Positions 14,207-17,712 of a stretch of DNA of 20,000 nucleotides are shown one piece after another (position 1 is the stretch's first letter; each line of letters begins with the position of its first letter). The notes under the pieces are model-generated. The model saw only the letters and a list, made by a program, of their open reading frames with translations. It was not told the origin of the DNA and ran no database searches. This DNA is from an uncultured virus (IMG/VR IMGVR_UViG_3300025853_000072) (lineage: Duplodnaviria > Heunggongvirae > Uroviricota > Caudoviricetes > Crassvirales): IMG/VR virus record IMGVR_UViG_3300025853_000072, one strand, 5' to 3'. The position numbers and the translations under genes are program-made.

Positions 14207-14801
14207 CGGTCTTGAGTTTCTTGGGGATACGGAAAGCGTGCATGGTGTAGTCGTCGATGTCGATGAAGGCTTCGTTGCGGTAGTACACAGAGGAGATGAA
14301 CTCACCCATTTGTGCAAGGTTGTGCAGGGATTGGTGAGGATTGTCGTCGGTGCTGTTGTCCATCACATCGGAGGAGACACGAGCCACAAGTGACATACAC
14401 AGGGGGTAGTAGTCCCATGCCACGCAGGAATCCTGTTGGTCCCACGTCAGCCAGATATGCTCGGTGGTGGAAGAGTTCTCGTATCGTGAGGCATCAACCT
14501 CGACGATGCGGAACACCTCGACACTCACGTCATCCATGTACTCTGCAACGTAGTCGTCGTGGTCCATGTCTGAGGGGACGCAAGCCTTGTAGTTGTCAGG
14601 GTCGCGGTCCATGGTGACAAAGGTGTGCATCATGTCACGGCTGTGTTCGATGTTGACACACATCTCGTCCTTGCGGTAGTCGTCGAGGTTTTGCTTGATG
14701 TGCTTGATGGCGGACTCTTCGTCGGGGAAGAACTCGCAAGTGGTGTCGGAGTAGCCTTCGTACAGGCCGCACACTCCGTGGATTACTGCATAAATTTTCA
14801 T
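14199..14801 (-). CDS. Hypothetical acidic early protein
   Basis: 200-aa ORF preceded by the TCAAACTTCAA leader motif. Confidence 0.7.
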   Translation of the reverse strand: MKIYAVIHGVCGLYEGYSDTTCEFFPDEESAIKHIKQNLDDYRKDEMCVNIEHSRDMMHTFVTMDRDPDNYKACVPSDMDHDDYVAEYMDDVSVEVFRIVEVDASRYENSSTTEHIWLTWDQQDSCVAWDYYPLCMSLVARVSSDVMDNSTDDNPHQSLHNLAQMGEFISSVYYRNEAFIDIDDYTMHAFRIPKKLKTDE

Positions 14802-14843
14802 AGGTAGTGAATTGAAGTTTGAAAATGATTGATAAGTATTGTC

Positions 14844-14885
14844 TGTATATATACTCTCTTCACTCTGTTCAGAGAGATATATACA
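14844..14885 (-). repeat. Long hairpin, copy 1 of 3
   Basis: Plus strand TGTATATATACTCTCT-TCACTCTGTTC-AGAGAGATATATACA. Related copies at 15490-15544 and 16663-16725. Confidence 0.8.
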
Positions 14886-14897
14886 TACATACTATAG

Positions 14898-14946
14898 AAG
14901 GGAGGAGGGGACTCGAACACCTCGGACGCACCGACTGCGCTCCCTT
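14898..14946 (-). ncRNA. tRNA-like mini-element (acceptor-like stem, one hairpin, T-arm-like hairpin)
   Basis: Minus strand AAGGGAG-CGCAgtcggTGCG-tcc-GAGGTG TTCGAGT CCCCTC-CTCCCTT. Confidence 0.45.
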
Positions 14947-14947
14947 G

Positions 14948-15025
14948 AAAAAAGTCAGGGTTTGGCCTGACGCTTCAGGTAAAAAAGTGAGGGGATAGCC
15001 TGACGTTTCAGGTAGTTACCCCCTC
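14948..15025 (-). terminator. Two tandem intrinsic terminator-like hairpins, each associated with a CCTGA-A(A/G)CG-TCAGG hairpin
   Basis: Minus strand GAGGGGGTAA...TATCCCCTC-AC-TTTTTT and GTCAGG-CCAAAC-CCTGAC-TTTTTT. Confidence 0.6.
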
Positions 15026-15040
15026 GTGGTCAAACTTCAA

Positions 15041-15238
15041 TTAACCAAAGTGAGATGCGTGGTACATGATGTCCTCGTCGTGGAGACGGAAGGACGTTGC
15101 ATTCTGAAGTGCCGAGTCCCATACGCTGTCGATGTAGACAGCATACTGCTTGGGTTCGCACTCCACTACCGATGCGTTGTACCCATCATCTGTGAGTACG
15201 GAAACGCATTTGTCGCAAAGGTCTTGTGTGATTTTCAT
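15041..15238 (-). CDS. Hypothetical protein (start MKITQDL)
   Basis: ATGA overlap with the stop of the upstream gene at 15235-15238. Confidence 0.55.
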   Translation of the reverse strand: MKITQDLCDKCVSVLTDDGYNASVVECEPKQYAVYIDSVWDSALQNATSFRLHDEDIMYHASHFG

Positions 15239-15462
15239 GAGTTTACTGCGATTACATATTTTTCTTTGATAGACCACTTGAGCATCCGTTTCTTCTCCTC
15301 TTCGCTCTCCCAATCGAACATCATTGTGGCGTCAGCGATGTTCCGAATCCATTCAGGGTCGTGGCGTGAAACCACGTTCAAGCGGTCGAGGAACTCGCCG
15401 TAGTGAAAGCCGTTCAGGTACAGCACGGCGGAGCCGATGGTGGGGAAGTTTGATTCAGTCAT
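15235..15462 (-). CDS. Hypothetical early protein
   Basis: Directly downstream of a doubled TCAAACTTCAA motif. Confidence 0.65.
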   Translation of the reverse strand: MTESNFPTIGSAVLYLNGFHYGEFLDRLNVVSRHDPEWIRNIADATMMFDWESEEEKKRMLKWSIKEKYVIAVNS

Positions 15463-15489
15463 GGGTTTGAAGTTTGAAGTTTGACATTG

Positions 15490-15544
15490 AGAGGGTTGTA
15501 TATTACCTTCTTCATAAATTCAGAAGGTATATATACTACCTCTC
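15490..15544 (-). repeat. Long hairpin, copy 2 of 3
   Basis: Plus strand AGAGGGTTGTATATTACCTTCT-TCATAAATTC-AGAAGGTATATATACTACCTCT. The stem covaries relative to the other copies. Confidence 0.75.
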
Positions 15545-15546
15545 TA

Positions 15547-15732
15547 TTAAGGTTGGTCGGTGGTGCCGATGCCGAAGTAAGAGAGGTCGAGCCATGTGTC
15601 CTCGTTGTACGCCTCGGCAACCATTGAGGTTGCTTCGTAGTCGCGGCACTCGGAGTAGTAGGCGTACGCCTCGATGAGTTCGTCGTGACAAAGGTCACGG
15701 AATGGGTTGAAGTATTCGTTGAAGTTTGACAT
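15547..15732 (-). CDS. Hypothetical highly acidic 61-aa protein
   Basis: D/E/Y-rich ORF that begins ATG-TCAAACTTCAA. Confidence 0.6.
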   Translation of the reverse strand: MSNFNEYFNPFRDLCHDELIEAYAYYSECRDYEATSMVAEAYNEDTWLDLSYFGIGTTDQP

Positions 15733-15738
15733 GGTAAA

Positions 15739-15978
15739 TCACTGATTTTGAATGACTTTGAAGGTTTTGTTCCACACGGTCCACCCCGTGTTTGCGAAGT
15801 AGTCCTGTGCCGAGCGGATGGCTTCCTCTTTCGTGAGAGCCTTGATTTTGTGAGGGCCGCGCCAATCATCGCGGTCCCTCCCGTAGTATACGTAGTACTC
15901 GAATGTATGAAGTCCTGCCTTTGCTTTCATGGCTTCGTAGTGTGTTCCCTTCGCAGGGTAGCGTTCCCAAATGTTCAT
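15739..15978 (-). CDS. Hypothetical protein
   Basis: ATGA overlap with the upstream gene. Confidence 0.65.
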   Translation of the reverse strand: MNIWERYPAKGTHYEAMKAKAGLHTFEYYVYYGRDRDDWRGPHKIKALTKEEAIRSAQDYFANTGWTVWNKTFKVIQNQ

Positions 15979-16403
15979 GATGTTTGATTTTCGGTTTGAC
16001 GTGCAGGCAACTCGACCTTCGTGGTGGCTCCACCAACAACGAAGTCGGGGTTGCGTACCTCTGACTGCGCTTGGAAGTCGTAGATGGCGATTTCGTTTCG
16101 GTGCTTCGCAAGTTCCAAGGCTACGTACTTGCTACGAACCACGTCGGAAACCTCGATGAAGGCCATTCCTGCATCCACCCAGCCCCCGATCACCTGTGTG
16201 TCTGGGTCGAGCATCTCTGATGCCATGCTTGTCATGGCAAGACAGAACTTATTGAACGAAAGGCTGTCGTTTTCAACGACAAGAGAAGGGACTTCGGTGC
16301 CGCCTACTGCGTAGCCACGGCCTGTGAAGGTCTTTTGGTCAGCGTTTACGCTGAAGCCCTCGCCGTCTTGCAGGGCCATGTAAAGAGATTGCAATGATGC
16401 CAT
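15975..16403 (-). CDS. Hypothetical early phage protein (start re-assigned to MASLQSL)
   Basis: The ATG at 16403 follows the leader motif. The track GTG at 16433 lies inside the ribozyme. Motifs GFSV...GYAVG...IGGWVD...EVS...ALELA...EIAIYDF. Confidence 0.7.
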   Translation of the reverse strand: MASLQSLYMALQDGEGFSVNADQKTFTGRGYAVGGTEVPSLVVENDSLSFNKFCLAMTSMASEMLDPDTQVIGGWVDAGMAFIEVSDVVRSKYVALELAKHRNEIAIYDFQAQSEVRNPDFVVGGATTKVELPARQTENQTS

Positions 16404-16422
16404 TGTAAATGAATTGAAGTTT

Positions 16423-16475
16423 GATACAGACACCCCAAAGGGGTGTTTCGCCTACTCAAGGCTCATCAGTGTATC
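16423..16475 (-). ncRNA. Type I hammerhead ribozyme
   Basis: Minus strand GATACA-CTGATGA-GCCT tgagt AGGC-GAAA-CACCCC ttt GGGGTG-TC-TGTATC. All core nucleotides are present, with three perfect stems and a GUC cleavage triplet (cut between 16429 and 16428). Confidence 0.93.
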
Positions 16476-16487
16476 TGTGATTGGATA

Positions 16488-16634
16488 TTACATATCCATC
16501 AAATCCTCCAGGGTCATCTGCTCAAGGCAAGACATCTCATCCCACGTAGCCGTGGCACGGACTGATTCGAAGGAAAGGTGAGAATCGAGGAGTTCAGCAA
16601 TCAGCTGAGAACGGACATCAGTGAATGTGTTCAT
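16488..16634 (-). CDS. Hypothetical acidic 48-aa protein (alternative in-frame ATG at 16661)
   Basis: Follows a doubled leader motif. The stop is 12 nt before the ribozyme. Confidence 0.55.
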   Translation of the reverse strand: MNTFTDVRSQLIAELLDSHLSFESVRATATWDEMSCLEQMTLEDLMDM

Positions 16635-16662
16635 GATGAATTGAAGTTTGAAGTTTGACATT

Positions 16663-16725
16663 GAGAGGTTCTGTATATATACTCTCTTCACTACGTTCAG
16701 AGAGGGTATATATACTAGAACTCTC
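16663..16725 (-). repeat. Long hairpin, copy 3 of 3
   Basis: Plus strand GAGAGGTTCTGTATATATACTCTCT-TCACTACGTTC-AGAGAGGGTATATATACTAGAACTCTC. Confidence 0.8.
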
Positions 16726-16737
16726 TAGTAGTTGGGA

Positions 16738-16839
16738 TTATTGCCCTCGGCCCCTCAACAAGTTGAGAAAGGCGAGCACACAGAGAACACAGAGTGTTCC
16801 GTATACGCAGAGCATGAAGAGTTGGAGAATGATTGTCAT
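16738..16839 (-). CDS. Putative 33-aa single-TM peptide (MTIILQLFMLCVYGTLCVLCVLAFLNLLRGRGQ)
   Basis: Read by hand because it is below the track cutoff. It fills the gap, and has a hydrophobic helix with a basic C-terminus. Confidence 0.55.
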   Translation of the reverse strand: MTIILQLFMLCVYGTLCVLCVLAFLNLLRGRGQ

Positions 16840-16849
16840 CTTCGATGAA

Positions 16850-17005
16850 TTAGAGTTTTTCCATTGACATTGCTAAAGCAATGAGACCGATTTGAGTCTC
16901 GTAGAGACTTGCGTTTTCAGGTATGCTTGAATCAATTCCATTGATTTCAAGGATGTTATCGATTTCATCGATAAGACGGAGCACGAAGGAATGTTTGGTA
17001 TTCAT
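16850..17005 (-). CDS. Hypothetical 51-aa protein
   Basis: ATG at 17005 after a TTCATTGAAA leader similar to that of the 17519 gene. Confidence 0.5.
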   Translation of the reverse strand: MNTKHSFVLRLIDEIDNILEINGIDSSIPENASLYETQIGLIALAMSMEKL

Positions 17006-17015
17006 TTTCAATGAA

Positions 17016-17519
17016 TTAGATGATGAATGGAACGTCGTCGAAGCCAACTTCGTTGATTGATTGAGGAGTCGAAGACTCCATGTGGATGGCCAAGCAAGCT
17101 GTCAGGGCTTCAACCTTGGCTTCCAAAGAAGCCAACTTGTCATCCTCTGCCTTCACTTCGGCTTTCTTGGCTGCTCTCTGAGCAGCTCCTGTGTGCTCTG
17201 AGACAGCCTTGGCTGACTCAGCAGCTTCCTTAACGGAAGCCTTCGGAGCCTTCTTGGAAGGCTTGACTGGCCCAACTTCGTTGGTCTTCATCGAAGCTCT
17301 GTCCATTTGGTCTGCCACCTTCTGTGAAGGTGTTCTCTTCGCCGTCTTACGACGGCCCTTCTTGGCCTTCTTCTTGGTCGGCTTAACCTCTTCGAGGTTA
17401 TTGACGAAGTCCATAGCTTCTTGCAGAAGCTTCAGAGCCAGAGCTTTACGCTCTGAAGTAGGACGGAAGGTGGCTTGGTTCACTGCCTTACGGCAGTCTT
17501 GGAATTGGAAGTTATTCAT
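17016..17519 (-). CDS. First gene of the leftward unit: Lys/Ala-rich protein with FDDVPF-like tail
   Basis: Basic patch KPTKKKAKKGRRKTAKR, AAKKA segments, a coiled coil and C-terminal GFDDVPFII. Confidence 0.75.
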   Translation of the reverse strand: MNNFQFQDCRKAVNQATFRPTSERKALALKLLQEAMDFVNNLEEVKPTKKKAKKGRRKTAKRTPSQKVADQMDRASMKTNEVGPVKPSKKAPKASVKEAAESAKAVSEHTGAAQRAAKKAEVKAEDDKLASLEAKVEALTACLAIHMESSTPQSINEVGFDDVPFII

Positions 17520-17541
17520 TGAAAATGAATTTGAAGTTTGA

Positions 17542-17712
17542 CCTAGAACCGACTTCTCAAGGCTCTAGGAGATAGTAGTAAGGAAGAGAAGTCGTAAGAC
17601 TCCTCTTCTCTTTCTTACTACATCTCTACTCTGCCACCATCTTATTCCTTTACGAAGTAAAGTAATAGTTTGACCGAATCCTCGGTAGTGACAGGAAGCC
17701 AACAAGTTGGCT
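17542..17712 (-). ncRNA. Candidate structured 5' leader RNA
   Basis: Consecutive stems: CUGUCACU/GGUGGCAG closing two hairpins, a ~22-bp interrupted hairpin, and CCUAGAGCC/GGUUCUAGG. G-U pairs mostly favour the minus strand. Confidence 0.5.

Follow-up and report, generated by a model that had tools for sequence, protein, structure and literature searches.

Intergenic hammerhead ribozymes of phages and prophages were described in 2011 by Perreault et al. (PMC3088659), who reported cleavage, both in vitro and in E. coli, by prophage hammerheads that flank genes and proposed that these process long polycistronic phage RNA. According to the same paper, the HHphage ribozyme of haloviruses HF1 and HF2 lies 13 nt before the start of an early gene, and the 5' end of a transcript was mapped no more than 3 nt from the cleavage site. 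The purpose of bacterial and phage hammerheads, and of most bacterial ribozymes, is described elsewhere as still largely open (PMC6765202). Type I hammerheads in the UTRs of RNA viruses have recently been linked to translation in a study that leaves out the hammerheads of DNA phages as previously reported (PMC13725137).

The hammerhead analyzed here lies in DNA from an uncultured virus of the Crassvirales (IMG/VR record IMGVR_UViG_3300025853_000072); "the window" denotes the whole stretch that was analyzed, 20,000 nucleotides long. All long ORFs between approximately 3.3 and 17.5 kb are on the minus strand; among their products are the two subunits of ribonucleotide reductase, a fusion of a BT4734-type primase with a DnaB-like helicase, and a PD-(D/E)XK nuclease. 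Judged by the primase/helicase, the nearest cultured phage is Maribacter phage Panino (35% identical), followed by phages of Cellulophaga, Flavobacterium, and Nonlabens; by these comparisons, the phage resembles those of marine Flavobacteriia. On the plus strand, a 494-aa protein (25-1509) carries a C-terminal type IX secretion sorting domain (Por_Secre_tail; E 2.2e-6; score 28.3 bits, cut-off 27), which fits a Bacteroidota host.

The preliminary description of this DNA had proposed a complete hammerhead on the minus strand, located between two co-oriented ORFs and cut at 16429/16428. Each of the elements it listed was found in place, minus-strand ORFs are present on both sides, and the predicted cut agrees with the hammerhead architecture, in which cleavage occurs 3' of C17 and leaves a 5'-OH on the 3' product and a 2',3'-cyclic phosphate on the upstream end. 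The parts of the ribozyme are as follows:

16423..16475, minus strand: type I hammerhead ribozyme (sequence reading, MFE fold, model R1 at 88 bits, covariation)
16475-16470, minus strand: 5' strand of stem I, GAUACA (sequence reading)
16469-16463, minus strand: core CUGAUGA (sequence reading)
16462-16450, minus strand: stem II, GCCU / loop UGAGU / AGGC, 4 bp with a 5-nt loop
16449-16447, minus strand: GAA (sequence reading)
16446-16430, minus strand: stem III, A-CACCCC / loop UUU / GGGGUG-U, 7 bp including A15.1-U16.1
16429, minus strand: C17 (sequence reading)
16429/16428, minus strand: predicted self-cleavage site, 3' of C17 (from the hammerhead architecture)
16428-16423, minus strand: 3' strand of stem I, UGUAUC, 6 bp with GAUACA

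The CUGAUGA block at 16469-16463 reads as C3-U4-G5-A6-N7-G8-A9, and the GAA at 16449-47 provides G12-A13-A14; A 16446 pairs with U 16430 as A15.1-U16.1, and C 16429 occupies H17. Loops close stems II and III and stem I opens to the flanks, which is the type I topology. The MFE fold of 16500-16400 consists of exactly the three hammerhead helices and one upstream hairpin, and its energy of -27.6 kcal/mol (z -2.57) was equalled by 2 of 200 shuffles. A pattern of fixed core blocks, GUC, and hairpin-sized gaps only (CTGATGAG..CGAAAC..GTC) had one match in the window and none in 200 dinucleotide-preserving shuffles, and a weaker two-block hammerhead pattern was matched in 5 of 200. When covariance model R1 (see below) was run with filters off, one hammerhead copy was found in the 20 kb, at 88 bits, and the runner-up scored 15 bits. 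The 16-mer at 17565-17550, on the minus strand before the 17539 leader, resembles the stem II region of the ribozyme at 14 of 16 bases. It was rejected as a hammerhead relic when R1 with filters off gave no match there at E<=10; either a relic or chance is possible for the resemblance itself.

The ribozyme sits in a module with a constant order: a 48-codon ORF, a hairpin containing its stop codon, the hammerhead, a leader with AAACUUCAA, and the ATG of a protein of 120-142 aa. In the window, the remaining parts of this module are:

16488..16634, minus strand: upstream 48-codon ORF (...EQMTLEDLMDM-stop), the conserved partner of the hammerhead
16483..16497, minus strand: upstream hairpin GGAUAU-GUA-AUAUCC (predicted folds, covariation, RF03152 alignment)
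16490-16488, minus strand: stop codon TAA of the small ORF, inside the upstream hairpin
16482-16476, minus strand: 7-nt linker between the hairpin and stem I
16404..16428, minus strand: 25-nt leader of the predicted 3' product, with the shared motif AAACUUCAA at 16422-16414
15975..16403, minus strand: downstream gene, 142 aa, of the GFSV..GYAVGG..GGWVD family, with homologues behind the hammerhead in relatives

In at least 10 of 17 distinct instances, the hammerhead comes after the C-terminal peptide of the 48-codon ORF, and where the small ORF is homologous the distance from its stop codon to stem I is 11-15 nt. The last codons and stop of this ORF form the 5' arm and loop of the hairpin at 16497-16483, and in relatives the non-coding 3' arm covaries with the codons (UUGAUAU/AUAUCAA, ACUGCU/AGCAGU, GUUGACAU/AUGUCAAC, and UUGAGAU/AUCUCAA). 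On the other side of the ribozyme, the leader of 25 nt to an ATG at 16403, as originally claimed, is correct, and the distance from cut to ATG is 25-27 nt in all 17 distinct subfamily instances (25 nt in the window).

The gene after the hammerhead is a diverged homologue of the 142-aa protein in 10 relatives, and the idea that the downstream gene varies among relatives was rejected for this reason. Its family comprises 220 metagenome clusters, unnamed save for one odd source label; Pfam holds no family for the 142-aa protein, and a flanking protein matched one PHROG of unknown function. A confident AF2 model of the 142-aa protein (pLDDT 86.5) gave no convincing fold match among solved structures, with a best Foldseek E of 0.086 and a best VIA-align Z of 4.2 (rmsd 3.2 over 68 residues). 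The ATG at 16403 is favored as the start because it is conserved in relatives. The ORF list starts this gene at a GTG at 16433, within stem III (152 aa), and 154-aa database entries (P0005 and P0010) suggest an equal over-extension by gene callers.

Relatives were found through the flanking proteins, with the ribozyme sequence not used in the search. The downstream protein led to L004 (83% identical) and the identical record L003, and the upstream 48-aa ORF led to L274 and L275 (73% identical). The whole core is kept in L004, L274, and L275, and the stems compare with those of the window as follows:

Stem I: GAUACA/UGUAUC in the window; second pair changed to G-U in L004; GGCAUA/UAUGUC in L274/L275
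Stem II: GCCU/AGGC in the window; GUCC/GGAC in L004; GCGC/GCGC in L274/L275
Stem III: CACCCC/GGGGUG in the window; unchanged in L004; CACCAC/GUGGUG in L274/L275
Core position 7, the one free core position: U in the window; C in L004; U in L274/L275

Variation in the core among these relatives is confined to N7 (U or C). Read as predicted pairs, the changes among relatives found by protein homology are compensatory in all three stems.

A scan of viral contigs with the fixed core and this stem III, leaving stems I and II free, returned 28 loci. Stems I and II are both perfect in 26 of them, with about ten different stem I sequences; the two exceptions have a bulged or irregular stem II (L010) or are cut by the contig end (L025). 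A looser viral pattern, which gave at least 119 loci, was discarded as nearly all chance: among the matches listed, only L113 and L140 passed the structure filter. In prokaryote genomes, a pattern of the core plus GUC-N5-CAAA gave at least 120 loci, and at least 26 among the matches listed passed a strict structure filter; the listed passers include Legionella species, Nitrosopumilus, Ulvibacterium, Saonia, Pedobacter, and Daejeonella. Almost all share a compact design in which stem I is exactly 6 bp, preceded by A and followed by AAA, often with a 4-bp stem II capped by a U..U pentaloop.

Model R1 was built from ten gap-free subfamily sequences. A search of 100 sources yielded 47 matches at E<=0.001, the window among them at 88 bits, and 46 distinct rows fitted to the model made up the covariation alignment. 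Of its 731 cells, 99.3% pair, compared with 71.0% in shuffles; both sides change in 14 of the 17 pairs, and five covariation measures were reached by none of 500 shuffles (0/500). Sliding the partners by 1-3 columns reduced pairing to 29-49%. The pairs G10.1-C11.1, A15.1-U16.1 (45 of 45 cells), and C15.2-G16.2 are invariant. Most of these sequences were gathered by patterns that require the core, and core conservation within the set is therefore partly built in.

Near-complete relatives of about 60 kb carry one or two ribozyme copies each, and the window carries one. In L022, L029, L113, and others, two hammerheads 200-500 nt apart bracket a single small gene, and the paired hammerheads within one relative genome share their stem I sequence. 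By DNA comparison with GenBank phages, 15900-17100 of the window had no match; the 101-nt element gave short chance matches and one real hammerhead, in AP013542.1. In this record of an uncultured Pelagivirus (L278), the hammerhead at 396-461 (approximately 30572-30637 of AP013542.1) has the same compact design, scores 47.3 bits with R1, and occupies an unannotated gap between two hypothetical genes. R1 found no hammerhead in Maribacter phage Panino or Cellulophaga phage phi38:1, in a search run without a positive control.

The preliminary description had named the Rfam hammerhead models as a check. The RAGATH-1 hammerhead is the best match, and every model scores below its curated threshold. 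At gathering thresholds, 4227 families gave 0 matches in the 20 kb. In a permissive search of a 201-base stretch, RF03152 (RAGATH-1) reached 33.5 bits against a gathering threshold of 56.3 (E 3e-4), with an alignment covering all 77 model positions, that is, the 5' hairpin, a 7-nt linker, and the open stem I; Hammerhead_3 reached 17.1 bits against 48.5. The 5' hairpin and linker before stem I are common to RF03152 and this element, and 16497-16483 aligns with model positions 2-18. The RF03152 model, however, shows a single closing pair in stem II, whereas stem II here is a canonical helix of 4 bp capped by a 5-nt loop, and the hairpin that RF03152 possesses is absent from some members of this subfamily (L004 and L022). 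Topology and core are identical to those of RF00163 (Hammerhead_1), but the score is below gathering: two relatives scored 23.2 and 22.8 bits against 34, and a viral record with an identical copy of the hammerhead gave no match at E<=10. The element therefore belongs to no Rfam family by curated score, yet all of the sequence and structure features that define the class are present; because relatives and an identical copy fall below the Hammerhead_1 threshold, routine Rfam annotation misses this compact subfamily.

The leader that follows the predicted cut is shared with other genes of the operon. Exact copies of AAACUUCAA occur eight times on the minus strand within 14.8-17.6 kb and once on the plus strand (15032). 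A 14-nt version of the leader, allowing up to 3 mismatches, gave 10 matches where 1.85 were expected, a number not attained in any of 200 shuffles. On the minus strand, AAACUUCAA is found just before the starts at 17519, 16634, 16403, 15462, and 14801 and overlaps the start at 15732, and some copies in 14801-17547 have a tandem AAACUUC-AAACUUCAA form. The motif also clusters in an early stretch of about 3 kb in two near-complete relatives. Stem I had been thought to overlap this repeated motif with its last bases; this is true of the terminal UC, but the likeness is otherwise a loose UGU..C resemblance only. The 25-nt leader is predicted to be unpaired as far as the start codon region. At three other places, a long hairpin or palindrome containing GTATATATAC was found:

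16725-16663, minus strand: long hairpin/palindrome with GTATATATAC, -27.3 kcal/mol
15544-15489, minus strand: long hairpin/palindrome with GTATATATAC, -24.6 kcal/mol
14893-14835, minus strand: long hairpin/palindrome with GTATATATAC, -22.6 kcal/mol

Each of these lies 10-25 nt ahead of a copy of the leader; at 16403, the hammerhead takes this place instead. The hairpin ahead of the small ORF (16725-16663) is kept, with altered arms, in L004 and L274.

Its full anatomy is present, it is conserved and covaries, and its position in a syntenic module is fixed; the element is a genuine and probably active type I hammerhead. We consider it quite likely that it is transcribed within the minus-strand early/replication operon, where it would cut itself and uncouple two cistrons; transcription across the site, the cleavage itself, and any consequences for stability or translation are what we infer from this arrangement. 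During transcription, all three stems, including the AU-rich stem I of 6 bp, would fold around the core, and the RNA would cut itself 3' of C17 (16429), separating the message of the small ORF from that of the downstream gene. The upstream product would contain the 48-codon ORF, and its 3' end would be the compactly folded ribozyme, carrying a 2',3'-cyclic phosphate. The product downstream of the cut would start at U 16428 with a 5'-OH and present an unstructured 25-nt leader with AAACUUCAA before the ATG of the 142-aa gene; its release should be easy because stem I is short. The net effect would be two uncoupled cistrons and a downstream message whose 5' end is defined and accessible.

RNA decay is influenced by 5'-OH ends and by structured 3' ends, and initiation may profit from a free 5' end where Shine-Dalgarno pairing is unused. 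It is conceivable, albeit rather unlikely, that the ribozyme acts as a host-independent maker of a free 5' end one leader-length (25-27 nt) before the ATG and so activates translation in non-Shine-Dalgarno hosts. As part of this reading, all early genes in the lineage may start with a AAACUUCAA leader behind either a hairpin/palindrome or a hammerhead. If true, then cleavage would be a translational activator and not a mere cutter.

Natural hammerheads need a tertiary contact to work at cellular Mg. Watson-Crick contact between loop II and the flanks was not above permuted controls (2.82 compared with 2.75; 282/1000), nor was complementarity between loop II and the 3' flank (2.84 compared with 2.90 permuted). 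The conserved A before stem I, the AAA after it, and the U..U pentaloop may point to a non-canonical tertiary contact.

A competing fold was also predicted. In a 311-nt context, both the MFE and the centroid structures pair codons 16526-16505 with the 3' half of the ribozyme (16440-16420) at -22.1 kcal/mol, a duplex that would disrupt stems I and III. The LEQMTLE codons could hold the 3' half inactive until ribosomes on the small ORF melt the helix and license cleavage and downstream release. The strength of the duplex in the window is consistent with such gating by translation, as is the constant position of the stop codon behind the homologous small ORF, since at 11-15 nt from stem I the base of the ribozyme would be within reach of a ribosome that terminates there. 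The helix is not kept, however: across 16 instances, the best duplex averages -16.2 kcal/mol compared with -14.4 (sd 2.6) for shuffled upstream sequence, and the stem III changes of L113a and L274 are unmatched in the codons. As the RNA is transcribed, moreover, the local hairpin of stem III should be the first to form. Because the alternative helix is not conserved across the 16 instances, we regard a translation-gated switch as improbable and only a minor rival.

Nucleotide similarity of the ribozyme and leader is high among phages, and in L022, L029, and L113 two copies bracket a single small gene, as might be expected if the hammerhead and leader were mainly shared DNA for recombination of early genes, with RNA cleavage secondary or lost. 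Both neighbors of the ribozyme are nevertheless conserved and syntenic in 10 relatives, so the junction is not a swap point, and the compensatory changes in all three stems show selection on RNA pairing, for which DNA homology alone would have no need; we give such a cassette boundary very little credence. That the element is an inactive look-alike or relic, matching the consensus with no useful rate of cleavage in the cell (for example, for lack of a tertiary contact), is hardly to be believed either: no Rfam threshold was reached, no loop II pseudoknot stood above permuted controls, and some phage variants are slow or inactive according to Perreault et al. (PMC3088659), but the consensus core here has no deviation, the stems pair perfectly and covary, and the 6-bp stem I, the A before and AAA after it, and the 5-nt U..U loop II are conserved across very different hosts.

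The active hammerhead that we favor is a clean further example of the phage hammerheads known since 2011; this copy leaves the general picture unchanged but is a well-defined case. A single ribozyme holds a fixed place between two conserved early genes with a constant spacing from cut to start, and other junctions of the same operon place a different element before the same leader; together, these features lend themselves to a simple reporter assay that sets cleavage against translation or stability. The case also bears on annotation: the curated Rfam thresholds miss the subfamily, at least one GenBank phage genome (AP013542.1) carries the hammerhead without annotation, and gene callers extend the downstream ORF into the ribozyme, yielding forms of 152-154 aa.

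In phage T7, RNase III processing sites between early genes cut the early polycistronic mRNA. The intercistronic cutting is alike, but here the RNA is proposed to cut itself without a host enzyme. The hammerheads of eukaryotic RNA viruses, as far as they are described in PMC13725137, are like this one in being type I with a long stem III, in the gap before an ORF, and in giving an RNA start shortly before the start codon, whereas their helix II is very short or long, unlike that found here. In HF1/HF2 HHphage, as here, a hammerhead lies a few nucleotides upstream of an early-gene start; that system, however, is an archaeal virus with a variant ribozyme that needs high Mg, and the present element has a canonical core and a spacing of 25-27 nt (PMC3088659). 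The hammerheads that Perreault et al. describe share with this one the consensus core, the three helices, and the location on the coding strand between phage genes of the same orientation; single small genes are flanked by one or two copies, as in the relatives found here, and the same transcript-cutting role was proposed (PMC3088659). In contrast to the clusters in the account of Perreault et al. (PMC3088659), the present element belongs to a compact subfamily that goes with a single syntenic pair of genes and a common leader, with a single copy in the window.
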